A DNA stretch of 24,293 nt from an uncultured Methanosarcinales archaeon (GCA_964385745.1 CAYLQB010000006.1:1-24293), one strand, 5' to 3'. Positions 4,479-24,293 are shown, numbered from the stretch's first letter. The notes: generated by a model from the sequence alone, not told the origin. A program made the numbers and translations.

Positions 4479-6647
4479 TTAGCCACCAACACCGGGAACT
4501 GCAGAACTCATATGTCCTGTGACCGCATTCGCAATCAAGTTAAAGGCAAGAGTTATCACAAAAGTAATAACCACATAAAGAAGAGTCGAGTTTATCAATG
4601 ACTTCCCAACAGTATACCTCTCTCCAAGAGAATCAGCCCCGTTTTCAATGCCATTGGCCAGAACCGCCAAAATGTAAATTAATTCAACAATGTATATCCC
4701 AACGACGAGCTGAAAGTAATATGTTGGTATTCCAAGACTAAAAAGCTTTCCCATTTGATCGCTATATTTGGAATTCAACTCAACGAGTTCACCAGAATTT
4801 ACTGAGGCCCTAAGTTGTCCCACTATCTTCGTTATCATAGATGTCAATCCAACGACAATTCCAGCTATCGCAGGAGTTATAAAAGATATTTGGGTTTTCA
4901 TAGATGAGATTGTATCAGCAAGCAGGTCCTTCAATCTCTCATTGACACGATGCATCTCTTTAATATAATGAGAGACATTCATCAAAGCATTTGAAACAAT
5001 AATAGGTCCCTTCTTGGCACTCTCCACGAGAACCTTCATAGAACTCTCTATCATGTTTGACGGGAAGTATACTAATGCACCTCTTTCTTTGTTGAATATT
5101 GCATCTTTAATTCCCATTCCTGAGCGTGTTAGGTTAGTAGTCACTATCTCAAAGAACTTCCCTGAAAGAGTACCCTGCATAACCTCAGCAACCTTCTGGC
5201 ACGCAATTTCGACAGGCAGTCCATCACCTATCCTATTGCCTAACTGAAACAATGCAGAAGCAAACTCCTGCTCGAGTTTTTTCGCATTACCCCTTATCAT
5301 AATCAATGTCTTTGAGCCCAAATAATAGTAAAGCCCCACTGAAATCCCCAAGCCCAGTGTTATGAACAAACTTATCAAACCGGCTCCGAGACCAAAAGGA
5401 CCAACCTCTACTCCTTTGTCCTCTATATAACCAAAGAAATTAAAATGAGTTATCTGATTAAAGTTACTGTCAAACTGGCTCACAAAACCAGGAGCTACCG
5501 CATGTATAAGAAGGGGAGACACTCCTATAAAAAAACAAATTAAGAAAACAGGCAAAGCAACAGTGAATGGCTTTAGTTTAAACTCCTTAGAGCCAATCTT
5601 TATAATAATATTTGAGTATTTTTTGAAGTTCTTATGATATTGTGATATATCAACATCACCATAGCCCGTCGGCCTCTTGGACAACAAGCTTCTTCCCAGA
5701 AAATAAACTCCTATTGGCAACAATATATCATAAAAGAAAGCAAGGTGATACCACTTAACTCCACCAATAAAATTAATCGCCAGCGGCAGAATAACCAAAC
5801 TAAGTATAGGAAGTATAATACCAAACATATTCAACATTGTCATAGGTGACTTCAGGTTATGAGCATAATGCAGCATCCTTTCATAGGTCTCATCAAGCAT
5901 CAAAGAAAGCGATTTTTCAAGTGCATTTATTCTACGGTCTTCTGAACTCTCAAACAATGAGGATTCTATTAAATGGAATGACTCAACAAATTCCGTGCTC
6001 CAGTCCTTCCAGGTATCTAAATACCTATCCATGGATTCTTTAATAGAAGGGTATTTCTGGGTTTCAACATTCCATAATACCTTCTTAAGGTCTGTTGAGA
6101 GGGGTGGTGATAAGTGCTGAGCAGCAAAATTTACCGCAAGCTCAAGATTGGATGTGTGCCTCATATAAGTCACAACATAGAAAACGCAGAGAACCATCTG
6201 GCTACTTGCCTTTAACCTCCAACTGTCTGCTATCAAAAAAGGGAGTTTCTGGAGCATTGCAAACAAAACCAATCCGAGAAGGAAGGTGAAGAGGACAGCC
6301 AGAAGAGAATTAAATATCAAGAAACTGAACAGGCCAAAGAATAAAATAAATAATACAGGTACAAGAAGAGATAAACTATACGCTCCAGTAGGAGTAATAT
6401 CCAAATGGCAGATATCTATCGCTTTCTGAAAATCTTGCTGTGTCTTCTTGTCAGGAGCGACTTTCAATAAATTTTCACTCATAGCGCAAAGCTTCTCATA
6501 CAATGATTTCTTTCTCTTCGTCAATTCAGTTTTAAACTGGACATACTGACGAGATTCTAGAGGAGATTCTTCAACAGAAATATTCTGCTTCAATCTCTGT
6601 TTATATTTGTCCATCAAATCCTTGAGGTCTTTCTCTGAGAATGTCAT
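4479..6647 (-). CDS. Polytopic membrane platform protein of a type IV filament system (FlaJ/TadC/PilC-like, two T2SSF-like repeats)
   Basis: 722-aa ORF with many TM helices. Two soluble helical segments (about aa 150-290, nt 5778-6200; about aa 452-600, nt 4848-5294) each fit the T2SSF pattern of helical bundle followed by TM helices, for example [39 protein letters not shown] and [29 protein letters not shown]...GIKDAIFN...[19 protein letters not shown]. It sits divergently next to the secretion ATPase. The assignment rests on pattern and context, not on a search. Confidence 0.55.
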
Positions 6648-6666
6648 AATTAAACTTCAATACTTG

Positions 6667-6682
6667 ATTTAAAATAATAAAA
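6667..6682 (-). promoter_or_regulatory. TATA-box candidate for the platform-protein gene (leaderless geometry)
   Basis: The minus strand reads TTTTATTATTTTAAAT, centred about 28 nt upstream of the ATG at 6647. No SD lies between them. Confidence 0.4.
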
Positions 6683-6848
6683 GTTTTGTGAGTATTCATA
6701 AGTAAAGAAATAGATTAAAATAATATTATTGAAGGGCTAATTCACAAAAAATATACAGTGGAAGAAGTTTATGAATTTATAGATAATAAGTAATAGAAAG
6801 ATAAATAAAGGAGTAAAGGGATAAAGTTATTAAAAAAGAGGTTTTAGT

Positions 6849-9143
6849 ATGGCCAAAACTAATTTAAGCTGCCCCCATGAAATTATAAGAGAAGGGGAAG
6901 ATGTTATATTAAGAATAAACTGCTCAAAGTGTCCTCTTGTTCCCAGCTTGGAAGATACTCCTAATTGTATGACATCTGTGATAACAAAGTTGGTAGAAAA
7001 CAATGATGTCACAAAAGTAATATTTTCCCAGAGGAGGGATTATGAATATGATTACAACCAAATCCAACTATTAATAGAAATCGCTAAAATTTACAAAAAG
7101 CTCATCAAGAATAAAGATATAATCAGTTATTATGGACTATCCCGGGGTCTTGAAACAAATAAATTCGTAAAAGAATGGTATAACCAGATTCACAGCATAA
7201 TCTTTGACCTGCTAAAGAGTGATCCCTTAGGTGCTTATGTCGAATTAATAAGAATCCGGAGAGTAGAGCAGATAGAACTCGAGAAAACCACCCTGATAGA
7301 GGAGGTTCATGCTCACGAGAAATATATATCCATATTGAATCAGATTATAGAGCTTCTCAAGAATACAAAATTAATAACAATAGCGGGGCCTTACTTGAAC
7401 GGTTACATCATTGGAAACCGAGATGTATACAGGAAAATATTCTCACCAACAATAAAACCCGACTTTATGTTTACAAAACTGATGGCTTCTTATCCAGAAG
7501 ACGCTGAAGAACTTGCCAGTTATACAGTTGGAAAAAACACAGAAATTACAATATTCAAATTGCCTAACTCTATACAAAATTTATATCATATAATGCCTCC
7601 TGAATTCAAACTGTTTGAGGAAAAATATGAACTACTGGACACAGCAAGGAAGATTATAGCTGAGCATAAACCAAAGAAATCTGAATTCGTCGACCCACAG
7701 AGGATGAGGCAGGTCTTCTATAATGTAGGTCATGATTTAATTGAAGAATTAGCAAGTTACCAGAGTTTAGAACTCAAACAGGATGAGATAGATGAATTGA
7801 CAGAAATCCTAGTCAGATACACTGTCGGCTTTGGATTAATAGAGGTCTTATTGCAGGATGATAAAGTTCAAGATGTAACAATAAACAGTCCTATGGGTCA
7901 GGTTCCTATGTTTATAGTTCATCAGGACTTCGAGGACTGCATAACAAATGTAGTCCCAACAAAATCAGAAGCAGAATCCTGGGCATCAAAATTGAGAATG
8001 ATGTCAGGCAGGCCGTTAGATGAAGCTAATCCTATACTGGATACAGAAATACAACTGCCAGGAGCAAATGCAAGAGTGGCTGTTATATCAGAGCCGCTTA
8101 ATCCGTCCGGGTTGGCATACGCATTCAGAAGGCACAGGGATAAACCATGGACCTTGCCCCTGTTTATAAAAAACAGAATGATTACTCCACTAGCAGCTGG
8201 AATAATAAGTTTCATTATAGATGGTTCAAGGACAATATTAGTCGCTGGAACAAGAAGTGCTGGAAAAACATCCCTTCTTGGTGCCCTCATGGTAGAGATA
8301 ATGCGAAAATACAGGATAATAACAATAGAAGACACTCTCGAATTACCAACTGCCTCTTTAAGAAAATTGGGTTATAATATTCAACCAATGAAAGTCGCAA
8401 GTGCAATGACAAAAGGAACATCAGAGGTCTCAGCTGATGAAGGAATAAGAACAACATTAAGAATGGGTGACTCCTCATTAATAGTCGGTGAAGTAAGAAG
8501 TAAAGAAGCAAGAGCACTGTATGAGGCAATGAGAGTGGGTGCATTGGCTCATGTTGTCGCAGGAACAATACATGGTGATTCCCCATATGGAGTATATGAC
8601 AGAGTTGTAAATGATTTGGAAGTTCCAAAGACAAGTTTCAAAGCAACGGATATTATTATAGTCGCGAATCCAATAAGAAGTCCAGACGGACTTCACAGAT
8701 GGAGGAGAGTGACTCAAATTTCAGAGGTAAGAAAATTTTGGGAGGAAGATCCGCTTTTGGAGAATGGTTTTGTTGATTTGATGAAGTATGATGCCAAGTC
8801 AGACGCGCTCAAACCGTCACAGGACTTAATAAACGGCGACTCAGAGATAATAAAAGCAATAGCAGGAAATGTAAAAGAATGGGCTGGAAACTGGACTGCT
8901 GTCTGGGATAATATCACATTAAGAGCAAATATAAAAGAACTTATGGTAAAATACTCTGAAAAAATAAAAAATCCTGAGTTACTCGAGGCAGAACATGTTA
9001 TACAAGCCAATGACCAATTTCACAGGATATCAGATGATGTCAAAGAGGAATTTGGTTTTATAGACACGAAGAAAGTAGCATTCAAATGGGAAGAATGGTT
9101 AAAAAGATATATTAAAAAGAAACAAATAAATGGAAAACTCTAA
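6849..9143 (+). CDS. Type II/IV secretion-system ATPase (archaeal FlaI/PilB/VirB11 superfamily) with long N- and C-terminal extensions
   Basis: 764-aa ORF. Motifs present: Walker A GTRSAGKT (nt 8247-8270), Asp box IITIEDTLEL, Walker B-like SLIVGE (Glu at 8490-8492), and His box AGTIHGDS. An SD (GAGGT) lies 6 nt upstream of the ATG. About 330 aa precede the canonical N-terminal domain, including four Cys (C8, C25, C28, C40). Confidence 0.9.
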   Translation: MAKTNLSCPHEIIREGEDVILRINCSKCPLVPSLEDTPNCMTSVITKLVENNDVTKVIFSQRRDYEYDYNQIQLLIEIAKIYKKLIKNKDIISYYGLSRGLETNKFVKEWYNQIHSIIFDLLKSDPLGAYVELIRIRRVEQIELEKTTLIEEVHAHEKYISILNQIIELLKNTKLITIAGPYLNGYIIGNRDVYRKIFSPTIKPDFMFTKLMASYPEDAEELASYTVGKNTEITIFKLPNSIQNLYHIMPPEFKLFEEKYELLDTARKIIAEHKPKKSEFVDPQRMRQVFYNVGHDLIEELASYQSLELKQDEIDELTEILVRYTVGFGLIEVLLQDDKVQDVTINSPMGQVPMFIVHQDFEDCITNVVPTKSEAESWASKLRMMSGRPLDEANPILDTEIQLPGANARVAVISEPLNPSGLAYAFRRHRDKPWTLPLFIKNRMITPLAAGIISFIIDGSRTILVAGTRSAGKTSLLGALMVEIMRKYRIITIEDTLELPTASLRKLGYNIQPMKVASAMTKGTSEVSADEGIRTTLRMGDSSLIVGEVRSKEARALYEAMRVGALAHVVAGTIHGDSPYGVYDRVVNDLEVPKTSFKATDIIIVANPIRSPDGLHRWRRVTQISEVRKFWEEDPLLENGFVDLMKYDAKSDALKPSQDLINGDSEIIKAIAGNVKEWAGNWTAVWDNITLRANIKELMVKYSEKIKNPELLEAEHVIQANDQFHRISDDVKEEFGFIDTKKVAFKWEEWLKRYIKKKQINGKL

Positions 9144-9301
9144 TAATCAATAAACAGATGATGTAAAACAAAAAGAAAACACAAGAAAGATAAATGAGAA
9201 ACCATTAATAGAATATAATAACAGAAGTCCCAGATATTAAGAAAAGGCAGATAATAAAAGGGAAGATTACTATTGAATTAATAAAATAATAAGGTGCTTT
9301 T

Positions 9302-9718
9302 ATGGATGCAAAAAAAACAAACCAGACCAATGCTGAAAGGAATATGATTAATACAGGAGTACAAGCTCAAGCAGGTCCAAATCTGTCAAGCATATCACGA
9401 AGATTGAGAATGCTTGAAGAAAGGTATACTAAATTAGTGAGCAGGTTACAATTAAATGAACATGATTCTATGGATTTTAAGAAAAGAACAAATGTCAATA
9501 TAAGAACAATAAATTCTGAACTTGATGAGATTAAATCAGAGATAAACGAGATAAAAGACAGAATAATCTTGATAGTTAAAGAATTAAAGTTAACTGCAAA
9601 GAAGGAAGATGTCAATATTTTAAAGAGGTACATTGAGATGTGGGAGCCAGTCAATTTTGTAACAAGAGATGAACTAAATAAAAAACTCAATGAATTAAAG
9701 AAGGAAATAGAAAGATAA
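9302..9718 (+). CDS. Small coiled-coil protein, function unknown
   Basis: 138-aa ORF with SD AAGGTG 5 nt upstream of the ATG. Heptad-like charged repeats run through most of the length (RRLRMLEERYTKLVSRL...ELDEIKSEINEIKDRIILIVKELK...LNELKKEIER). There is no TM helix and no catalytic motif. Confidence 0.6.
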   Translation: MDAKKTNQTNAERNMINTGVQAQAGPNLSSISRRLRMLEERYTKLVSRLQLNEHDSMDFKKRTNVNIRTINSELDEIKSEINEIKDRIILIVKELKLTAKKEDVNILKRYIEMWEPVNFVTRDELNKKLNELKKEIER

Positions 9719-9866
9719 AAAGCAACGATATTCCAGATAGGAGTCAGAAAAACAAAAATTTTAAAAACAGAGAGATAAAGGTATATTAATAGTAGTTAAA
9801 AGCGATATAAACAAAGCAGGATGATGATAATGCTGTTGTTTATAAACAAATAAGAAGAGGTATAAA

Positions 9867-10496
9867 ATGCCAGACAATGTCCCAATCAATAAGGTTCTAC
9901 AGATGAGAACTCAAGGACTAAATAATTCTCAAATCATAGAGGCCTTGGAGAGAGAAGGTTATAACCCAAACCAGATATTTGATGCTATGAACCAGGCAGA
10001 TATGAAAGCATCAATTGAGAAAGCGCCAAATCTCGAAACTGTCCAAACTCAGAATCCAATAGACCCGACTATAAGTGCACAACAACCACAGATAACTCCA
10101 CAAGCAACCCAGACGGCACCAGGACATGATTATTATAATCAGGATTATGGAACAGGAATGCTTGACACAGATACAGAAAAAATAGAGGAGATAGCAGAGG
10201 CAATTATCAATGAGAAATGGGAGGATTTAGTGACAAGCTTAAATGAGGTAGTAGAATGGAAGAACAAGACAGAGCAGAGAATAAACAAGTTCGAGCAGAG
10301 AGTTACTGATTTAAAAGATGCCTTCACACAGTTGCAGAAAGGACTTATGGACAAGATTTCGGAGTATGACCAGCACATTATGGATGTCGGAACAGAAGTA
10401 AAGGCAATGGAAACAGTGTTCAAAAAAGTCCTGCCGACATTAACATCAAATGTAACAGAATTATCAAGCATTGTAAACAAACTAAAAGAGAAATAA
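9867..10496 (+). CDS. Three-part protein: small N-terminal helical domain, P/Q/T-rich linker, C-terminal coiled coil. Function unknown.
   Basis: 209-aa ORF with SD GAGGT upstream. The N-terminus is INKVLQMRTQGLNNSQIIEALEREGYNPNQIFDAMNQA. The linker is TVQTQNPIDPTISAQQPQITPQATQTAPG. The C-terminal region is EKIEEIAEAIINEKWEDL...KAMETVFKKVLPTLTSNVTELSSIVNKLKEK. Confidence 0.6.
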   Translation: MPDNVPINKVLQMRTQGLNNSQIIEALEREGYNPNQIFDAMNQADMKASIEKAPNLETVQTQNPIDPTISAQQPQITPQATQTAPGHDYYNQDYGTGMLDTDTEKIEEIAEAIINEKWEDLVTSLNEVVEWKNKTEQRINKFEQRVTDLKDAFTQLQKGLMDKISEYDQHIMDVGTEVKAMETVFKKVLPTLTSNVTELSSIVNKLKEK

Positions 10497-10661
10497 AAGA
10501 AAGCGAAGATAACATAAAGACAAGCTGGAATGGACTAACAGTTCATAAAGTTTATTTCTCTTCGTTAATAATCATTAACAAATAAGAAAAGATTTAAATA
10601 AAAGAATGATTTTATTTAAGAGTATAATAATATATGTAAAAAGATTGTATGAGGTGTCAAT

Positions 10662-10928
10662 ATGCTGAGAATGAAATTATTAAGCGAAACATATAACTTA
10701 GATGTGTTCACAGAAGATGGAGATTACTTTGGGTACATTGAAGAGCCCTTACTTACTGAAAATAAGGTCGGAGCATGGCGCATAAGGGCGAAGAAGGGCT
10801 CTGTCCTGAGCAAGATTGTTGGAGGAGGGGCAAAGGGAGTTATAATACCACATCAACTCGTGAAAACCCTGGGAGATATTATGATTATAAGCAAGCAGGC
10901 AGTTCCAAGCTACAAAGAAGAAGAATAA
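10662..10928 (+). CDS. Single-domain PRC-barrel protein
   Basis: 88-aa ORF with SD GAGGTG 5 nt upstream. The PRC-barrel pattern is present: VFTEDGDYFGYIEEPLL..NKVGAWRI.....GVIIPHQLVKTLGDIMIIS. Its size matches the stand-alone archaeal PRC-barrel proteins. Confidence 0.6.
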   Translation: MLRMKLLSETYNLDVFTEDGDYFGYIEEPLLTENKVGAWRIRAKKGSVLSKIVGGGAKGVIIPHQLVKTLGDIMIISKQAVPSYKEEE

Positions 10929-11002
10929 ATAACAAGAACGCCTGAATAATATTTTAATTTAATTTTCTTATCTTTACATTGCAATTCTCTTCTCTTGTTT
11001 AA

Positions 11003-11028
11003 TATTTCCTGCTCAACAGTAGGAAATA
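11003..11028 (+). terminator. Hairpin downstream of the PRC-barrel gene (possible 3' end of the ATPase-led transcription unit)
   Basis: TATTTCCTGCT-CAAC-AGTAGGAAATA forms an 11-bp stem with one G-U pair and a 4-nt loop. It lies 75 nt after the stop at 10928 and is preceded by T-rich runs (TTTTAATTTAATTTTCTTATCTTT). Confidence 0.3.
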
Positions 11029-11150
11029 CTATTGTCATTCTATTCTTAGATTATAATAAACCAGGCATCGGCAGGCCACCAGACAAAATTCGACTTGGAA
11101 GACCATTTAAACTACTATTAAATGAATAAAGTAAGCAGAAAAAAGTAAAG

Positions 11151-11160
11151 TTTTTTATAT
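11151..11160 (+). promoter_or_regulatory. TATA-box candidate for the 414-aa orphan gene (leaderless geometry)
   Basis: TTTTTTATAT is centred about 31 nt upstream of the ATG at 11188. It is preceded by a purine-rich, BRE-like AAAAGTAAAG. There is no SD. Confidence 0.4.
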
Positions 11161-11187
11161 TTGTAAAACAATCCTCAATTAAGACAA

Positions 11188-12432
11188 ATGTCAAATAAGG
11201 AATATAAAGAGAAAATAAATAAATGGAATAAGGAAGATTTTCTAATCTGGAAGAAGTTCAATTTAGGCCTGGAAGTCAAGGAGATAAAGAAAAAGTCAAA
11301 GAGAAGAGGACTGGGAGAGAACAGGAAAGAAAATGAAATAAGGGGAATTGAGAATATTATTAATGCGATAGAAAGCATTAAGCCCAACGAGTATATTATA
11401 ATAGATGGAAGACAGATTATCCTACCTCAAGATAATCCTCGCTTTGAGATGAGCGCAAAGGGATTTAAAAAAAGAACGAACGCATTTTACCTGAAGAGAT
11501 TAACAATAGCAGAGCGGATGGATAAAAGAGAAAGTCCTCAAAAGATGCTTCTGGATATTATAAAAAAAGAATCAGAAACTTATATCATAAAAGGGAAATC
11601 AAAAGAACACTCATTCAGCGATGAGGACTATCCTTATCTTGCCCGCAGGGGATTTCACTGGTATAAAACAAACAGTACTCATGTATTAATGCCTCAGGTG
11701 GATATTCTAAAAGCAATCATATTGAGTTCTTTAATCATACATTATGACCGGCTTGGAAAAATGAGGTTGACATACTCTAATCCAGGAGGTAATTTTAATA
11801 TAGACATACCGAGTAGGGAAAATCCAAAGAATACATATCAGGTAAAGTTAAAGAATTTGGTTACAGAACTTCCTGATGGTTACGGCAACTGGGTAAATAT
11901 CGAGGGAATCACATCAGCACCATATGGTTCGAACAGCAGAATAGATTTATACAGTAATGAGAGCAACAGAACAAAACACTCTGAGATGAGATTAAACCAC
12001 ACAGTATTAACCGCTCTAATATTAAGACAGCATTTCAATGATGAAAGGTTAGGTTTAGGCAAATTCAAGAGCTCAAAAGCGATAAACAGAGAAACAAATA
12101 AAAGCCATCCAATACCGAGAGTTCTGCTTAACATAGTACCTTTACCAACAGAAGGACTCCTTAAATTTTATTTAAAATTACAGAACAATGTTTTAATATC
12201 AAAGAGAGAAAGTAACAGCAAAGGGAAGTATAACATAAGGTTAAAAAAACTAAATCAGGCCCAGGAGGAGGCCTTAATATCAGTAAGAAACATGCTCCTT
12301 CCAAGAAAGGCCTACCAAATAGACGACCAGTTTAACACTCTGGATAAATTAGTTTATTCAACCCTAAAAGAACTTCAAACTTATACAGGATACAAAATAA
12401 GAGACCTAAGGAGAGAAAAACATTTTATTTAA
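11188..12432 (+). CDS. Hypothetical protein: basic, cysteine-free, no recognisable domain
   Basis: 414-aa ATG-initiated ORF with a Lys/Arg-rich N-terminus, no TM segment and no Cys. There is no SD. A TATA-like TTTTTTATAT lies about 30 nt upstream, giving leaderless geometry. Long intergenic regions flank it on both sides. Confidence 0.6.
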   Translation: MSNKEYKEKINKWNKEDFLIWKKFNLGLEVKEIKKKSKRRGLGENRKENEIRGIENIINAIESIKPNEYIIIDGRQIILPQDNPRFEMSAKGFKKRTNAFYLKRLTIAERMDKRESPQKMLLDIIKKESETYIIKGKSKEHSFSDEDYPYLARRGFHWYKTNSTHVLMPQVDILKAIILSSLIIHYDRLGKMRLTYSNPGGNFNIDIPSRENPKNTYQVKLKNLVTELPDGYGNWVNIEGITSAPYGSNSRIDLYSNESNRTKHSEMRLNHTVLTALILRQHFNDERLGLGKFKSSKAINRETNKSHPIPRVLLNIVPLPTEGLLKFYLKLQNNVLISKRESNSKGKYNIRLKKLNQAQEEALISVRNMLLPRKAYQIDDQFNTLDKLVYSTLKELQTYTGYKIRDLRREKHFI

Positions 12433-16819: not shown

Positions 16820-16944
16820 ATTTCCACCTTACTATTTTAACATTTTAATACCAAATGATTATTACAAATGAGATTAAATGAATAACAACGAACAAACCTG
16901 TGACTTAAATAAAAATACATAATCATAAACAAATAAAAGTATAA

Positions 16945-17424
16945 TCAAAAAACATGCTTCTCGTTTACTGTTTCATAATTAAACAGCTCATCATCTGAAA
17001 ACCAGAGGGCAATCTCTCTCTTTGCCGCTTCAATATCGCTGGATGCGTGTATCAAATTTTTGACAGCGATTCCCTTTTTATCAGCATATTCTGCTGAGTG
17101 CATTGCAAAGTCCCCTCTTATTGTTCCTGGAGGTGCTTTTCTCGGTTCTGTTGGACCAACGAGTTTTCTTACAATTTCAACACCGTGAACTCCTTCAATC
17201 ACCATCGCAATAACAGGACCCTCTGTTATCATAGTTTCAAGGAATTTATAAAATGGCTTGTCAACATGCTCTGCATAATGCTTCTTTGAAAATTCCTTAT
17301 CAATCCAGACCATTTTCATACCGACGATTTTTAGACCTGCCCTCTCAAAGCGTGAAATAATCTGGCCAACAACCTGCCTCTTAACAGCGTCAGGTTTCAA
17401 AACAACCAATGTCCTTTGAATCAT
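16945..17424 (-). CDS. ndk: Nucleoside diphosphate kinase
   Basis: RTLVVLKPDAV, GPVIAMVIEG, TIRGDFA, and the active-site histidine in NLIHASSD. An SD (GGAGGG) lies upstream. Confidence 0.9.
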   Translation of the reverse strand: MIQRTLVVLKPDAVKRQVVGQIISRFERAGLKIVGMKMVWIDKEFSKKHYAEHVDKPFYKFLETMITEGPVIAMVIEGVHGVEIVRKLVGPTEPRKAPPGTIRGDFAMHSAEYADKKGIAVKNLIHASSDIEAAKREIALWFSDDELFNYETVNEKHVF

Positions 17425-18902: not shown

Positions 18903-19322
18903 ATGATATCAAAAAGTACGAAAAAAGGGCAAGTAAGTATCGAATTTATGGTTGTTGTAGGTCTCATGCTTTTAGTTCTCGTGCCATTAATCATCGCTTA
19001 CTATGAGAATACTCGAGCATCATCCAATACTATACAGAGCGAACAACTCGACAAGGTCGCCAAGGAAATAACAGACACAGCAGAAACAGTTTACTATATG
19101 GGAGAACCTTCAAAAATTACAATTCAAGCATACATTCCCCACGGAGTTGAGAGTGTTTCAATCAGCAACAATGAGATAGTTTTTAAGGTTGTTAGAGGGG
19201 ATAATACCTCTGATATAGTTAGTGTTTCAAAGGTCAACATATCTGGCTCAATAAGCAACTCAGAAGGAATACACAATATCATTCTGGAAGCAAAGGAGGG
19301 CTATGTTGAGATTAATGGTTAA
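18903..19322 (+). CDS. Archaeal type IV pilin-like protein (class III signal peptide, QxSxE type)
   Basis: The N-terminus is MISKSTKKG|QVSIEFMVVVGLMLLVLVPLII: a basic leader, Gly at -1, Gln at +1, Ser +3, Glu +5, then a hydrophobic helix. This is the DUF361/Class_III-signal pattern QxSxExxxL. The remainder looks beta-rich. Confidence 0.75.
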   Translation: MISKSTKKGQVSIEFMVVVGLMLLVLVPLIIAYYENTRASSNTIQSEQLDKVAKEITDTAETVYYMGEPSKITIQAYIPHGVESVSISNNEIVFKVVRGDNTSDIVSVSKVNISGSISNSEGIHNIILEAKEGYVEING

Positions 19323-19746
19323 TAAGGTGTCTAAATTGCCTAACAGAGAAGGAAATAAAAAAGCTCAGATTACCCTTGAATTCATACTCTTATTTAGTAT
19401 AGTGTTTTTTCTTTTTATCGGCTTGGAAAAGGTCATAAGTGTCAGGATAGGACTTAGAAGAGACGCAAAGATAAACAATGCTCTGGAGGACATTGGAGGA
19501 GTGGTTAAAGATGAAATTTCTAATGCTCAGAAAGCAGTTGGTGATTACTCAAGAACATTCGATATCCCTGATAACCTGTTCGGAATGAATTACAGTATCA
19601 ATATTGAAAATCAATTTTTAGTAGTTGAATATGACAAATATCAGTTTATTACATTAGTAGAAAATATCAGCGGACAACCAAAACCTGGCAGTAATATTAT
19701 AAGAAAAATCAACAAGAAGATTTGCATAAATACAGAATGCACTTAA
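19303..19746 (+). CDS. Archaeal type IV pilin-like protein (class III signal peptide, QxTxE type)
   Basis: ...NKKA|QITLEFILLFSIVFFLFIGL. The start is uncertain. The ATG at 19303 overlaps the upstream gene by 20 nt. The ATG at 19315 gives an ATGGTTAA start/stop overlap. An in-frame TTG at 19336 has the best SD geometry (AAGGTG, 6 nt, TTG) and would give a 10-aa leader. Confidence 0.7.
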   Translation: MLRLMVNKVSKLPNREGNKKAQITLEFILLFSIVFFLFIGLEKVISVRIGLRRDAKINNALEDIGGVVKDEISNAQKAVGDYSRTFDIPDNLFGMNYSINIENQFLVVEYDKYQFITLVENISGQPKPGSNIIRKINKKICINTECT

Positions 19747-19836: not shown

Positions 19837-20349
19837 ATGAAGATGAACAAGAAAGCACAGGTCTGGATACTTGATTTTATTATAGGATTTTTATTCTTCA
19901 CAACGGCTTTAATTGTATTCTTCAAGTATACTCCTAATCTTTACTTGAAAACAGACACAGGGGATTTACTAAATGAAGCAAAAATGCTCTCAGATAAATT
20001 TATGAGTTCAGGAATGCCTGAAAATTGGGAAGAATTAAACCTGAACAATGAAGAGAACATGTCAAGAGTATCTTATTTTGGAATAACAAATGACAACTTC
20101 AGGATTAACAATTCCAAGTTAAACAGAATAATGAACATTACAAACACCAGCTACGATGAGGTAAGGATTAAACAAGGACTTAAGTATGACTTCTTTGTCG
20201 AATTAACCCAGAGGGGTAATGTTAAGGTAAGTTTTGGTCATGATTTTGAGCCAGAGTACAACAAGATAAAGAATCTGGTTAAGGTTGAGAGAATTGTAAT
20301 TTTAAACAGCACAGTAAGCAAATTGAAGATAATAGTATTTGAAGAGTAA
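19837..20349 (+). CDS. Pilin-like protein with a variant class III signal peptide
   Basis: MKMNKKA|QVWILDFIIGFLFFTTALIVFF: basic leader, Ala at -1, Gln at +1, an acidic residue at +6, and a hydrophobic helix. By SD spacing (AGGT upstream) the second ATG at 19843 is the more likely start. Confidence 0.6.
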   Translation: MKMNKKAQVWILDFIIGFLFFTTALIVFFKYTPNLYLKTDTGDLLNEAKMLSDKFMSSGMPENWEELNLNNEENMSRVSYFGITNDNFRINNSKLNRIMNITNTSYDEVRIKQGLKYDFFVELTQRGNVKVSFGHDFEPEYNKIKNLVKVERIVILNSTVSKLKIIVFEE

Positions 20350-20401: not shown

Positions 20402-23212
20402 ATGAAAAAGAGAGAGAAGAGAAAAAACAGGAATGCCAGCTGGCATCGAGGAAAAAAGAACTGCAGGGGAATCTTTTTTTCCATAGATGGAATACTCGCA
20501 TCAGGAATAATCATACTGGCTTTAATACTCTTATCAAGCTTTTACTTAAACAAACCCAACACAGTAAACATGAATTACAATGCAGAGGACCTTGCTGGCG
20601 TATTATCAAACATAAAAGTTGGGGAGTTGAACAATAGCTACAAAGATTACTTAATCAACAGCAGCATAATAAAGGATTATGACTTGAACAAGTCAATTCT
20701 TGAGATTATTGGGAAATTGTATGTTACAGGACATGAAGCAGAGGCATCAGAATTATTCCAGAATATAAGCTCTGGCTTATTTGATAACAGGGGCTATGGA
20801 TTGTATCTAGATAAGAACACTATCTTTGAAAAAAATCTTTCCAACAAAGAGAGAAACAATATCATAAGCTTCCCAAGGGTAATATCCGGAATTGAAGAGG
20901 AAAAACCAATTGAGGGGTACACAGCCAGAGCATTCATCAAATCGATAGATGGAAAAACATTTTCAAATTATATTTTCTTCGGAGGATTAGAAGGACAGGG
21001 CAACTTAACCACACGAATGGAACTGCCTGATTTCACAAACATAACAAAAATTTATTTAGAGTTTGATGCCGAGAGCAACTTCTCGCTTTTCATAAACAAC
21101 AATTCTGCAGGGACTTTCCCGCAGGGGTGCACTGGCGGTGGTTTTATGAGAGCGTACAAGTGCTATGTTAATGAATCATACTTTAATTTACTCCATCAGG
21201 GAACAAACAAAATTGAGATAAGATTCAACAATGATTTAAACCACTCTTATATAGGAGGTGGATTTTTGAGGGTCAATTTCGATACTACCAACTTGAACTA
21301 TTCTGACATCAACTACAATGAAGATGAGAACTTAGCATCACAAAGGGACTGGTTAATAGGTGTCAAAGGAGTAATAAACAAATATTCTTCTCTTTATATT
21401 CCCGGAAATTTAACAGGGATGGAAATGTTTTTAAACTTCAGCGCGGATTACCCGTTGTTTGTAAACCTTGGAAACACAACAATCTACGATGGAAACATAA
21501 ACAATGACACAGGAAATGTAACTGTAATTCTGAATAATTCTAAGTTATCTTCAATGCTTAACTATAGCAACATATCGTTAAAAACCCTTCCTCTAAGAAT
21601 GGGACACACAGAAGTTAAGCAGGTAGGAATTATAGGCCACAAGGCAGATGTTGTTTTAATCACAGACCTCTCAGGGAGTATGAAATGGAGATTCGACTCT
21701 GATGACACAGGGACAGTAAGAAACTGCTCTGACCCTTTGCTCTATGACAACAGCACAAGAAGAATCTCAGTTGCCAAATGCCTGGACAAACAATTCGTCG
21801 ATGTTATAATGAATGAATCAAATCCAGGAAATAGAATGTGGCTGGTTGACTTCAACGACGACGCAAATTCATATTACAGCGACAACAAAAGCGATTTGGA
21901 GAACCATATTGACAATTATCCAGATGATCCGTCTGGCGGAACATGCATATGCTGTGCTGTTAATGAGGCATACAATATACTCAATGCAAATAGCAATTCA
22001 TCAAGAGATAAATTTGTCGTTGTGATGACAGATGGGCTGCCGACATATTGCTGTGGAAAAGAACTTGATTATTGTGTATGGTGGTGGTGTTATTATAAGT
22101 GCCAGACAACAGGGAATGCAACTTCATACCAATATTATTCTTCTAGTTGCGGAGGCGGTTCAGACGACTGCACAGGAAGTGACTGCGAAGGTCCAATAAA
22201 CTCATCTATATATTCTGCTTATAGAGTACATACTTACCAGAATGCGACAGTTGATACAATAGGATTCGGACCTGTATCAAACTGCACTAATGCGAACTAT
22301 ACACTAACAGAAATGGCATATGAAGGAAACGGAAGTTACTTCGCAAGCCAAGACCCAAGTAAACTAGCAAATATTTACTTAACTATCGCGCGCAGGATAA
22401 ACAACAAGTCAGCCATATATGAGTACCAGAGAATATTAGTCAATAATGTTACATCTGAATTGTACGACAATTCATACATCTTAATAAATTATACACCTTT
22501 AAACAAGCCATATGTCTACGGAAAGATTCCTTTAAGGATTGAAACAGACAGTTTTAACAACAATATTACACAGGGAGAATTTTTAGTTCCTGAGAATACG
22601 AGCGTAATAGAAGGGTATGCAACATCTTACTCTTCTTATTATTGGAGTAATAATCTTACAATAAACTCTAAACAGGTCTTTAACCTAAATGACTTTGGAA
22701 GCGAATACAACCTTTTGGGAGATCCCTTTATCATAAATATTCCTATCAATAAAATAAACATTGGGAACAATTCCGTTATTATAACGACCGCTTCAGCCCC
22801 CGGCAATTATACAGGAGGTTCTCCTGATGACAAAGTGATTTATACTCTGCTAATAAAAAATTTCGTCAGTTACTCTGCCGTTGAGTCAAAAGCAGAAGGA
22901 TGCAACTGGACTGTGTACTTTGAAGACGGGAGCAACACTACACTAATTGTCCCTGATAGTTACTCTGGTACTAATTACTGCATTTACAATGCTTCTATTT
23001 CTGGAACGCACTGCACTTACAACGGAGACAGCGAGACGAACGACGCAATAAACAAGGCAATATGCCAGCTTCTTACACAACTTGACCCGGATAAGAATGG
23101 AAAAATAAATGTCAAAGTATCACAGGATAATTTAAAATTAGATACTATAGTCATAAAAAGAGTCCCCTCACTCTGGGGGCCTGCTATCCTGAGATTAAAC
23201 ATATGGAACTAA
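20402..23212 (+). CDS. Large modular pilin-like surface protein with a von Willebrand factor A (vWA) domain: candidate tip adhesin
   Basis: 936 aa. A polybasic leader is followed by RG|IFFSIDGILASGIIILALILL. The vWA domain spans about aa 415-667 (nt 21644-22402) and has a complete MIDAS: DLSGS (21665-21679), GGT (Thr at 21941-21943) and MTDG (Asp at 22031-22033), then TIGFG. A Cys/aromatic-rich insert lies between them at nt 22046-22186. I hand-counted about 45 N-x-S/T sequons. Confidence 0.8.
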   Translation: MKKREKRKNRNASWHRGKKNCRGIFFSIDGILASGIIILALILLSSFYLNKPNTVNMNYNAEDLAGVLSNIKVGELNNSYKDYLINSSIIKDYDLNKSILEIIGKLYVTGHEAEASELFQNISSGLFDNRGYGLYLDKNTIFEKNLSNKERNNIISFPRVISGIEEEKPIEGYTARAFIKSIDGKTFSNYIFFGGLEGQGNLTTRMELPDFTNITKIYLEFDAESNFSLFINNNSAGTFPQGCTGGGFMRAYKCYVNESYFNLLHQGTNKIEIRFNNDLNHSYIGGGFLRVNFDTTNLNYSDINYNEDENLASQRDWLIGVKGVINKYSSLYIPGNLTGMEMFLNFSADYPLFVNLGNTTIYDGNINNDTGNVTVILNNSKLSSMLNYSNISLKTLPLRMGHTEVKQVGIIGHKADVVLITDLSGSMKWRFDSDDTGTVRNCSDPLLYDNSTRRISVAKCLDKQFVDVIMNESNPGNRMWLVDFNDDANSYYSDNKSDLENHIDNYPDDPSGGTCICCAVNEAYNILNANSNSSRDKFVVVMTDGLPTYCCGKELDYCVWWWCYYKCQTTGNATSYQYYSSSCGGGSDDCTGSDCEGPINSSIYSAYRVHTYQNATVDTIGFGPVSNCTNANYTLTEMAYEGNGSYFASQDPSKLANIYLTIARRINNKSAIYEYQRILVNNVTSELYDNSYILINYTPLNKPYVYGKIPLRIETDSFNNNITQGEFLVPENTSVIEGYATSYSSYYWSNNLTINSKQVFNLNDFGSEYNLLGDPFIINIPINKINIGNNSVIITTASAPGNYTGGSPDDKVIYTLLIKNFVSYSAVESKAEGCNWTVYFEDGSNTTLIVPDSYSGTNYCIYNASISGTHCTYNGDSETNDAINKAICQLLTQLDPDKNGKINVKVSQDNLKLDTIVIKRVPSLWGPAILRLNIWN

Positions 23213-23273: not shown

Positions 23274-24293
23274 ATGACAAACAAAATGAAAAAGAACAAT
23301 AAGAAAAACAGGAAAAACACGGGCAAGAGGAGGATTAATAAGAAAGGTATCTTCTTTACACTCACCGCAATATTGCTTATGGCTCTTATATTATTAATTT
23401 CTACTTACACTTACTCATTTAAACTGAGAGACAGGGAAGAAGTAATATCATCAAGGATTGATACAATTAATAATTTTATAAAAGGAATTGACAGTGATCT
23501 CGACAGAGAAATTTACATATCCGGATTCAGAACCATACTCGGAATGCAGGATTATATGGAAGAGAAGGGAGAATTCTTCAACAACAGTCAGGAGGCATTC
23601 AAAGAAATTTTTTTGTATGGAAAATATGGAAATGAAACAATCGACATAATGAATGACACAAGTTTTACAAATTGGAGTAACAGAATGAAAGACAAAGCAG
23701 AAGAACTTAATATTATAATAAACTTCACAAATGTTAGTTTTAAGGTCTTTCAGGATGAGCCATGGGGTATAAAAATAAACATGATAATTAAATCAGAGAT
23801 TAAAGATGTAAATGGTTTAGCATATTGGAATTATACTTTCAACAAAAACAACAGCATAAGCATAATTGGATTTGAAGATCCGCTGTATACAATAGGGACT
23901 TATGGAAAAGTGAGCAACATAATAAATAAAACACCCTACGAGCATTTTGTCATTGGAAACAACACGAATAATCTGCTCAACCACTTAAACAGGTCCTATT
24001 ACAAAGAATCAACAACAGCCCCTGACTTTTTAATGAGATTCTCAAATAATCTGTCAAATTCATCTTATGGCATAGAAAGCATGGTAAATGTTCAGAAACT
24101 TATTGACTCCGGGCTTACAACAAAAACAAAAAGCGTTGTTGATTATATATACTTTGGAAATAGAAGTACAAGCAATTTGTGCATAAACAACACAAAGGCA
24201 GATCCGGACATGCCAAGCTGGTTTAGATTGGACCAGGATGATAATCATGTATCAAGCTACGAAACGAGTGACATAAGTGAGACCTGTCATTAA
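23274..24293 (+). CDS. Pilin-like protein with a long polybasic leader (related N-terminus to the vWA protein)
   Basis: MTNKMKKNNKKNRKNTGKRRINKKG|IFFTLTAILLMALILLIS shares the G|IFF[ST][IL] junction with the previous gene. I hand-counted 15 N-x-S/T sequons in 339 aa. The stop codon TAA forms the last three bases of the window. Confidence 0.55.
   Translation: MTNKMKKNNKKNRKNTGKRRINKKGIFFTLTAILLMALILLISTYTYSFKLRDREEVISSRIDTINNFIKGIDSDLDREIYISGFRTILGMQDYMEEKGEFFNNSQEAFKEIFLYGKYGNETIDIMNDTSFTNWSNRMKDKAEELNIIINFTNVSFKVFQDEPWGIKINMIIKSEIKDVNGLAYWNYTFNKNNSISIIGFEDPLYTIGTYGKVSNIINKTPYEHFVIGNNTNNLLNHLNRSYYKESTTAPDFLMRFSNNLSNSSYGIESMVNVQKLIDSGLTTKTKSVVDYIYFGNRSTSNLCINNTKADPDMPSWFRLDQDDNHVSSYETSDISETCH

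Follow-up and report, generated by a model that had tools for sequence, protein, structure and literature searches.

Proteins that join a pilin-type N-terminus to a vWA (von Willebrand factor A) domain are known from bacterial type IV filaments. The TadG/CpaL-type proteins of Tad pili, namely Aggregatibacter TadG, Caulobacter CpaL (PMC12607857) and Myxococcus KilN (PMC12075869), form one such group. [quoted passage not shown] PilB of the Streptococcus sanguinis type IV pilus (PDB 7B7P; PMC8179133), which consists of a pilin module and a vWA domain, is a proven adhesin for which a tip position has been proposed. More generally, vWA-bearing minor pilins or their partners prime and cap bacterial filaments (PMC8179133, PMC12607857, PMC12075869). 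Here we describe a 936-residue vWA protein with a complete MIDAS that is encoded beside pilin-like genes in a stretch of 24,293 nucleotides from an uncultured Methanosarcinales archaeon (GCA_964385745.1, CAYLQB010000006.1:1-24293; the whole stretch is called the window below), and we compare it and its locus with these systems.

In Archaea, the type IV filament loci termed 'system 1' or clade 1 are recognised by a single ATPase, a pair of platform genes and many class III signal proteins (bioRxiv 10.64898/2026.04.22.720090; PMC4858521). They have been reported in Methanococcales, Thermococcales and DPANN archaea (bioRxiv 10.64898/2026.04.22.720090). Clade-1 loci are predicted to carry at least five minor pilins and two large tip-adhesin candidates with DUF2341 (PMC4858521). 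The same 2016 census of archaeal type IV pili did not identify the pilins for the nanoarchaeal ATPases, and its authors, Makarova et al., treat vWA proteins only as cytoplasmic ArnB-type regulators (PMC4858521). Tad pili are themselves thought to be derived from archaeal Epd-type pili (bioRxiv 10.64898/2026.04.22.720090).

The vWA domain carries a complete and conserved MIDAS

The open reading frame of the vWA protein extends from 20402 to 23212 (+) including the stop codon, starts with ATG and encodes 936 amino acids (aa). Re-translation reproduced exactly the position and length given in an earlier interpretation of the window made from the sequence alone (the sequence-only reading), and all motif strings quoted there are found in the translation. 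The N-terminus reads ...KKNCRG↓IFFSIDGILASGIIILALILL, where the arrow marks the putative cleavage site and RG↓IFFSIDGILASGIIILALILL covers aa 22-44. Further downstream, IFFGGLEGQG occupies aa 191-200, CTGGGFMRAYKCY aa 243-255 and IGGGFLRVNF aa 284-293, followed by DLSGS (aa 422-426), GGT (aa 512-514), TDG (aa 543-545) and TIGFG (aa 619-623).

The vWA domain comprises aa 415-670 (21644..22411, +), as supported by Pfam, by Foldseek and by a family profile compared with PDB sequences. Both Pfam profiles that describe this domain score above their curated thresholds, in agreement with the assignment made in the sequence-only reading: VWA_2 reaches 32.7 bits (gathering threshold 27, E 1.2e-7) and VWA 26.9 bits (threshold 23.8), and VWA is matched by 31 of 37 homologues, with a best E of 1.5e-11. 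Conservation was assessed in an alignment of 80 homologues (30-79% identity) and in a second alignment of 37 members. The motif D422-L-S424-G-S426 (21665..21679, +) lies at the C-terminal end of strand beta1 and aligns to the DxSxS of Mfa5 and 4rck; in the 80 sequences D422 and S424 never vary, and S426 is kept in at least 90%. The MIDAS threonine in G-G-T514 (21935..21943, +) is located just before the modelled helix 516-530 and is followed by a conserved C515-I-C517-C518, with T514, C515 and C518 each conserved in at least 90% of the sequences. The MIDAS aspartate in T-D544-G (22028..22036, +) is found at the end of strand beta4, preceded by the modelled strand 536-543; D544 is invariant and G545 at least 90% conserved. 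Every MIDAS element named in the sequence-only reading is present and is conserved across the family, and the site would be expected to hold Mg2+ or Mn2+.

A full-length AlphaFold (AF2) model built on the 80-sequence alignment (predicted local distance difference test, pLDDT, 87.5; predicted template-modelling score, pTM, 0.62) recovered the Rossmann-like vWA fold that the sequence-only reading had anticipated. Judged from the secondary structure of this model, the MIDAS residues take up their canonical positions, where beta1 and beta4 end and just ahead of helix 516-530. When the model was compared with the PDB in Foldseek, solved vWA domains were matched at probability 1.0, with template-modelling (TM) scores of up to 0.76 normalised to the target. 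The first three ranks are occupied by ITIH1, a non-pilus vWA protein; the matches that follow are mostly the pilus adhesins PilB, Mfa5, PitA, SpaC and RrgA (E 1e-10 to 3e-6), and the vWA domains of BatB and LapA are also among them. At the sequence level, a single-sequence phmmer search of the PDB sequences gave no match and a family profile was needed. The profile matched Mfa5 (E 2.3e-15) and PilB (E 7.4e-10) as well as GBS104 and RrgA, and in the residue-level alignments DlSgSM, ggT and sDG fall on the MIDAS motifs of these proteins of known structure. The NCBIfam model for CglB, the Cys-rich vWA gliding adhesin of Myxococcus, gave 32.9 bits, which is far below its cut-off of 200.

A Cys-rich 'arm' that varies in length within the family is inserted in the domain after beta4 (aa 546-595; 22037..22186, +). 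It contains a beta-hairpin at residues 553-567 and, in the family-profile alignment, occupies the same site as the insertion in Mfa5. Homologues longer than 1000 aa (e.g., P0047, P0070, P0052 and P0061) retain all three regions and carry 118-1179 aa of extra sequence, which sits inside the vWA domain, either as about 250 aa in the arm or as 160-390 aa after aa 531-534. In the numbering of our query, the hot spots for insertion are aa 531-534 and aa 566-582. An invariant metal site combined with variable elaborations in the same domain is the pattern expected of a ligand-binding adhesin.

Leader, N-terminal modules and C-terminal domains

The vWA protein starts with a Lys/Arg-rich n-region (aa 1-23; 20402..20470, +) that contains Cys21 and ends at the putative prepilin-peptidase site R22-G23. 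A hydrophobic helix of 23 residues follows (aa 24-46; 20471..20539, +), as judged from hydropathy and from the AF2 model, in which the helix covers residues 22-46. The basic n-region, the [KR]-[GA] pair at positions -2/-1 and the roughly 20-residue hydrophobic helix are the features of a class III-type leader. Across the family, the n-region has a median length of 6 aa, and the leader motif [KR][GA]x[FY][FY][STM]xD is found in 148 of 237 members, or in 210 in a relaxed form. Asp29 in the helix is at least 90% conserved among the 80 aligned sequences; if cleavage takes place after Gly23, it would be at position +6 rather than +5, the usual acidic residue in bacteria being Glu5.

The sequence-only reading had described some 360 beta-rich residues after the N-terminus and had regarded the vWA domain as fused directly to a class III signal peptide. 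The first of these statements holds for aa 131-402 (20792..21607, +), which form a beta-sandwich region in the AF2 model and correspond to no Pfam model. The preceding stretch of about 70 aa is a helical subdomain (aa 54-123; 20561..20770, +) with AF2 helices at residues 54-70, 79-86, 92-96, 99-108 and 112-123. The direct fusion has to be abandoned, as about 390 aa intervene between leader and vWA domain. In Foldseek searches the N-terminal 410 residues gave weak matches to sugar-binding jelly-roll domains, among them GH86, the GH2 N-terminal domain, BcsB and CBM36, at E values of about 1e-4 and TM scores of at most 0.22 normalised to the query. These matches are too weak for a lectin function to be assigned to the beta-sandwich region.

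Following the vWA domain, beta-rich C-terminal domains occupy aa 685-935 (22454..23206, +) in the AF2 model and include Cys834 and Cys860, which are conserved in the alignment; searches of these domains returned no Pfam match and no sequence relative in the PDB. They contain a DxDxDG-like loop, D-P-D-K-N-G (aa 895-900; 23084..23101, +), within a weak match to EF-hand_STIM1 (aa 882-912, E 0.018). In the family the loop has the consensus LDxDxDGKxD, L894 and D895 being kept in at least 90% of the 37 sequences, and it may be a calcium-binding site that recalls the EF-hand-like site of PilY1.

The composition of the protein is distinctive. It has 43 N-x(not P)-S/T sequons (about 45 in the sequence-only reading), of which 42 come after the membrane helix. 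In 5000 composition-preserving shuffles the corresponding number was 16.4 +/- 3.5, and none reached 42 (z = 7.2). This amounts to 4.6 sequons per 100 aa, as against 0-1.4 in the cytoplasmic proteins of the window and 2.3 in ribosomal L24e. The family has a median of 3.5 sequons per 100 aa, and z exceeds 3 in 80% of its members; several sequons are positionally conserved (N96, N201, N358, N471, N614, N632 and N802), and the one at N201 is kept in 76 of 80 members. There are 21 Cys residues, close to the earlier estimate of about 22, and 64 of 80 members have an even Cys count. Since Cys21 lies within the leader, the mature protein would have 20. Together with the N-in/C-out topology, the enriched sequons and paired Cys residues indicate that the vWA protein is extracellular rather than cytoplasmic, and the composition agrees with the glycosylated, disulfide-type extracellular protein envisaged in the sequence-only reading.

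A predicted type IV filament locus with conserved gene order

Directly upstream of the vWA gene are three genes for small pilin-like proteins. The first, p1 (139 aa; 18903..19322, +), begins with KKG↓QVSIEF, has Glu at position +5 and a single N-terminal hydrophobic helix, and reaches 20.8 bits with the Class_IIIsignal profile, below the gathering threshold of 23.7. The second, p2 (147 aa; 19303..19746, +), overlaps p1 by 20 nucleotides, begins with KKA↓QITLEF, also with Glu +5, and reaches 22.2 bits, again below 23.7. The third, p3 (170 aa; 19837..20349, +), begins with KKA↓QVWILDF, with Asp at +6, and has a single N-terminal helix and a weak DUF7287 match. A second large pilin-like protein of 339 aa, g5, is encoded downstream (23274..24293, +; L001 12873-13892), and its stop codon closes the window. 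Its leader reads KKG↓IFFTLTA, its hydrophobic helix is devoid of acidic residues, and it has 15 sequons where 6.5 are expected. The g5 family and the vWA protein appear to have leader, helix and helical subdomain in common (hhalign probability 85%, E 6e-6, a score that is inflated by the common hydrophobic helix), and the N-terminal module of g5 appears to be homologous to that of the vWA protein.

On the 32.5-kilobase (kb) source contig the gene order is p1, p2, p3, vWA, g5, a helix-turn-helix (HTH)/coiled-coil gene, a T2SSE ATPase and two T2SSF platform genes. The HTH protein, with a long coiled coil, has 382 aa and is encoded between g5 and the ATPase (L001 14100-15248). The ATPase, of 548 aa, scores 283 bits with the FlaI-like and 201 bits with the TadA-like model of NCBIfam, both below the cut-offs. 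The distance from the vWA gene to this downstream motor, ATPase and platform genes together, is 2.5-6 kb. One Aenigmarchaeota contig (L002) and one Altiarchaeota contig (L003) show the same gene order.

Conservation of this arrangement was surveyed in 83 loci, each count being made only over loci with enough flanking sequence. Upstream of the vWA gene, homologues of p1/p2 occur in 63 of 70 loci and a p3 homologue, directly adjoining, in 68 of 70, and a g5-type gene directly downstream is found in 69 of 72. The p3 and g5 counts come from iterative jackhmmer searches, as single-query phmmer under-detected both, and the jackhmmer locus counts may be slightly inflated by the common hydrophobic N-termini. 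The ATPase and both platform genes are encoded within 10 kb of the vWA gene in 28 of 41 loci. A vWA protein with a class III-type leader next to FlaI/FlaJ-like genes, proposed as worth seeking in the sequence-only reading, is thereby found on the source contig and in related loci; that reading had no view of the motor, whose genes are encoded past the end of the window. Its single ATPase, pair of platform genes and several class III signal proteins make this a predicted type IV filament locus of the Epd/'system 1' type.

What is encoded between the pilin-like set and the ATPase differs by lineage, and the products are probably cytoplasmic regulators or assembly factors. The gene in this position has a weak DUF2226 match in Altiarchaeota (L003 13419-14786) and encodes a MinD/ParA-like ATPase in Aenigmarchaeota (L002 12279-13022). 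In L002 a protein of 158 aa beginning with MKRKG↓QGALEYL is encoded directly after the platform genes (16914-17390) and is a candidate major pilin. On the source contig, the pilus locus is directly followed by a convergent gene for a 782-aa S-layer protein (S_layer_C; L001 19400-21748, -). An S-layer-like gene is a frequent companion of type IV pilus loci in Archaea (Makarova et al., PMC4858521).

Distribution of the family and source of the DNA

A vWA protein identical to ours (100%) is already present, unnamed, in public databases, and full-length homologues with 30-65% identity are labelled only 'vWA domain-containing protein'. They come from Woesearchaeota, Pacearchaeota, Nanoarchaeota, Aenigmarchaeota, Altiarchaeota and a Micrarchaeia order, and a scan of one genome per species found at least 497 species-level genomes with a relative. 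With a profile of the N-terminal 410 aa, 1373 clusters at 50% identity were retrieved, 1023 of them at E <= 1e-10; the best 150 of the 1373 clusters all have the module at their extreme N-terminus, and the proteins measure 800-2031 aa. The family is widespread in DPANN archaea and undescribed in the literature searched. A vWA-bearing class III signal protein is mentioned neither in PMC4858521 nor in bioRxiv 10.64898/2026.04.22.720090, a 2026 survey of archaeal type IV filaments that is silent on vWA proteins altogether, and a search for DPANN or Woesearchaeota pili or pilins with vWA yielded nothing relevant, only a study of a candidate phyla radiation (CPR) bacterium. The statement in the sequence-only reading that no such protein had been characterised in archaea is in line with this outcome. 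The N-terminal module went unmatched by current pilin profiles in our searches, so such proteins may escape pilin predictors.

Among the best 80 relatives, 57 bear DPANN names, 13 are named 'archaeon' and 10 are labelled Methanosarcinales, Methanobacteriota or Euryarchaeota. Several relatives share the label 'uncultured Methanosarcinales', which looks doubtful. As the nearest named relatives of the vWA protein are from Woesearchaeota (53-55% identity), the source of the window is probably a DPANN archaeon that is Woesearchaeota-like. Between the pilin-like cluster and an upstream secretion-type ATPase the window encodes archaeal L7Ae, S28e, L24e, NDK, aEF-2, aEF-1alpha and S10, and its G+C content is uniform, giving no hint of foreign DNA. 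One relative with at least 90% identity (P0256, NIA04158.1), from a 3.2-kb contig labelled 'Nitrospiraceae bacterium', is almost certainly a mis-binned archaeal sequence, because the window carries archaeal L7Ae, S28e, L24e, aEF-2 and aEF-1alpha genes.

A second secretion or type IV filament-like system may be present at 4479-12432 of the window. It includes a T2SSE-family ATPase of 764 aa (6849-9143, +) and, divergently oriented, a polytopic membrane protein of 722 aa with no Pfam match (4479-6647, -). Downstream are two genes for coiled-coil proteins (9302-9718, 9867-10496), one for a PRC-barrel protein (10662-10928) and one for a basic protein of 414 aa that had no match (11188-12432).

Candidate roles of the vWA protein

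In order to rationalise these observations, we turned to the ways in which a vWA protein could serve a type IV filament. We favour, with moderate confidence, a role as a minor-pilin-like subunit that, with the four co-encoded proteins, would prime the filament, end up at its distal end and display the MIDAS face. The Lys/Arg-rich leader would remain in the cytoplasm while the hydrophobic helix of aa 24-46 enters the membrane, and an A24 prepilin peptidase would probably cut after Gly23. The helix could then bundle with those of p1 and p2 (Glu +5), p3 (Asp +6) and g5 (no acidic residue). We infer that the resulting five-protein complex would act as the primer on which the FlaI-like ATPase and the pair of platform proteins polymerise the filament, and that it would ride out as the filament grows. 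An ectodomain of about 890 aa, glycosylated and stabilised by disulfides, would in this way present the vWA MIDAS face, flanked by its Cys-rich and length-variable arm, to a ligand on a surface or host cell. With Glu +5 in both p1 and p2, Asp +6 in the vWA protein as in p3, and no acidic residue in g5, the pattern is compatible with an ordered cap, in which g5 could be the capping subunit. The tip pseudopilin GspK likewise has no Glu5.

Several observations weigh against this assignment, beginning with the N-terminus. Searches of Pfam and NCBIfam at E <= 0.1 gave no class III signal or pilin match (Class_IIIsignal, Pilin_N, N_methyl) for the vWA protein, and Phe-Phe at +2/+3 would presumably fail the FlaFind pattern. 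Past the putative cleavage site the helix continues for about 25 residues, ending at about aa 46-49, where the helical subdomain takes over; no alpha1C/beta-sheet pilin head follows in the AF2 model. Foldseek found no pilin fold with a model of aa 1-410 alone, which is of moderate quality (pLDDT 70.8, compared with about 85-95 for the same region in the full-length context). The vWA protein is not a canonical pilin by profile or by fold, and of the prepilin-like N-terminus proposed in the sequence-only reading, the leader and helix pattern stands across the family, without a class III or pilin profile match and without a pilin head.

The gene context also contributes points of this kind. About one third of the loci with enough flank have no motor within 10 kb, and neither a major pilin nor an equivalent of the 158-aa L002 protein was identified in the 32.5-kb contig. 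No prepilin peptidase gene was found in the window or in that contig, and a scan of multi-transmembrane reading frames combined with Pfam located an A24 peptidase gene within 10 kb in 1 of the 83 loci only; a regular-expression search for the motif GxGD[VA]K had no match in the 83. In L008, from a Woesearchaeota metagenome-assembled genome, a gene about 2 kb upstream of the p1-p3/vWA cluster (6979-7857, -) matches Peptidase_A24 with 36.5 bits (threshold 26.5) and, weakly, Arc_PepC_II.

An alternative that we regard as unlikely but worth weighing is that the helix, cleaved or not, stays in the membrane, the vWA protein being a membrane-retained component of the machine base or a surface adhesin independent of the pilus. 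Its ectodomain would span the pseudo-periplasm and S-layer and would either anchor or stabilise the filament, in the manner of the archaellum proteins ArlF/ArlG or of the older TadG-anchor proposal, or adhere by itself. [quoted passage not shown] However, the helix has a conserved acidic residue close to its start and is preceded by a short [KR][GA] n-region, features typical of filament subunits and not of plain signal anchors. The nearest relatives of the vWA domain in structure and sequence are mostly tip adhesins, and the length-variable arm beside Asp544 suggests a diversifying contact with an external ligand. Recent work, moreover, puts TadG/CpaL-type proteins at the tip (PMC12607857, PMC12075869).

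The strict adjacency of g5 (69 of 72 loci) and the N-terminal module that it has in common with the vWA protein raise another explanation, namely that the MIDAS binds an acidic residue of a machine part, be it g5, a small pilin or the S-layer protein, which would make the vWA domain an assembly clamp or mechanosensor instead of an adhesin. An invariant MIDAS core is what an invariant partner would predict, and Caulobacter CpaL acts as a surface-sensing regulator and not as a simple adhesin (PMC12607857). We nevertheless consider this improbable: the large lineage-specific insertions in the vWA domain fit variable external targets better than a fixed partner, and vWA domains of the PilB, Mfa5, RrgA and SpaC type bind external ligands (PMC8179133).

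An unrelated vWA membrane protein that happens to lie beside pilus genes, either an ArnB-type cytoplasmic regulator, the only kind of vWA protein previously tied to archaeal type IV filaments (PMC4858521), or a BatA/BatB-type aerotolerance protein, as might be suggested by the matches of BatB (3ibs) and 4jdu to the vWA core (TM 0.70-0.74 normalised to the target), is very improbable and was rejected on topology, composition and gene context, given that the N-in/C-out orientation, enriched sequons and paired Cys residues point outside the cell, the locus has no FHA/ArnA, MoxR or GvpN partner, and the gene order with the pilin-like genes is kept across several DPANN lineages.

The minor-pilin-like subunit remains our preferred assignment. 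The sequence-only reading had called the protein the ligand-binding subunit of the filament; the vWA domain with its MIDAS, the extracellular composition and the type IV filament locus speak for this description, and the lack of a profile or fold match speaks against a strict pilin label. As a whole, that interpretation is partly supported, and the locus context, our strongest line of evidence, strengthens it.

DPANN archaea are mostly uncultured and ultra-small and are thought to rely on physical attachment to a host, and the molecules that make this contact are largely unknown. A concrete and widely conserved module that couples adhesion chemistry (the MIDAS) with a variable arm is a candidate for surface or host attachment. 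Much more tentatively, we hypothesise that the five-gene module might form the tip complex by which an Epd/Tad-like pilus, common to most DPANN archaea, recognises hosts or surfaces, that the MIDAS and hypervariable arm might set the partner specificity of these episymbionts, and that the module might be the counterpart, possibly the ancestor, of the bacterial TadE/TadF/TadG set; we think this broad proposal doubtful as it stands. The module itself offers defined targets for antibodies, metal-site mutants, binding assays with recombinant vWA domain and cryo-electron tomography of DPANN-host co-cultures.

Comparison with known systems

Among proteins built by other assembly systems, the adhesins of sortase pili (RrgA, GBS104, SpaC and PitA) and of type V pili (Mfa5) provide some of the best matches to our vWA domain. 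They are tip adhesins and have an insertion after the beta4 'DG'. They differ in being assembled by sortase or by type V strand exchange and in having no hydrophobic N-terminal helix. The likeness is one of convergence or of modular reuse of the vWA domain.

PilY1/PilC of type IVa pili resembles the archaeal protein in its vWA domain, in a proposed tip site with minor pilins and in a priming role, and its EF-hand-like calcium site has a parallel in the conserved DxDxDG-like loop of the archaeal family. PilY1 itself, with its Sec signal and C-terminal beta-propeller, is not a pilin. Pfam searches detected no PilY1/PilC, DUF2341 or Tad domain in the vWA protein or in 37 homologues and returned only vWA families.

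The clade-1 or 'system 1' adhesins (arCOG03508, DUF2341) are encoded in loci of similar make-up, with an ATPase, two platform genes, at least five class III proteins and two large secreted proteins. System 1 loci sometimes include a MinD-like ATPase, as L002 does. Their adhesins carry DUF2341 or galactose-binding-type domains and no vWA domain (PMC4858521; bioRxiv 10.64898/2026.04.22.720090). DUF2341 was not detected in the vWA family.

PilB was one of the bacterial precedents put forward in the sequence-only reading, and fold and profile both match it (E 2e-10 and E 7.4e-10, respectively). The two proteins share a vWA domain with a functional-type MIDAS and arms, and a pilin-type leader at the N-terminus. 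In PilB, which is bacterial, a canonical pilin module (IPR012902 leader and alpha/beta head) is joined directly to the vWA domain, whereas the pilin part of the archaeal protein is a helix only, the intervening modules are unrelated and there are extra C-terminal domains.

The precedent overlooked in that reading is TadG/CpaL of Tad pili, which, beyond PilB and PilY1, is the closest. Like TadG/CpaL, the archaeal protein has a leader, a hydrophobic helix and a large ectodomain with a MIDAS-bearing vWA domain split by a beta-rich insert, and its gene likewise has two or three small pseudopilin genes beside it (TadE/TadF in Tad loci, p1-p3 in ours), in a locus with a TadA/FlaI-type ATPase and a pair of platform genes. 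The proteins reported as structurally closest to CpaL, namely SpaC, RrgA, Mfa5 and PilB (PMC12607857), are the set that we recovered for the vWA protein. The differences are that Tad/TadE N-terminal profiles match neither the vWA protein (Pfam, E <= 0.1) nor the 37 homologues, that the leader is of the archaeal form G↓xFFSxD as opposed to the G/A-x4-E/F of Tad, and that the archaeal protein has about 390 aa of helical and beta-sandwich modules before the vWA domain and archaeal-type N-glycosylation sequons. A tblastn search of the PLSDB plasmids with the vWA domain for TadG-type relatives gave no match. The resemblance is best taken to mean that the protein probably works like TadG/CpaL rather than that it belongs to the same family, the homology seen being that of the generic vWA fold. 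Read in this manner, the comparison would extend the 'modular pilin' principle of PilB and TadG/CpaL to the Archaea.

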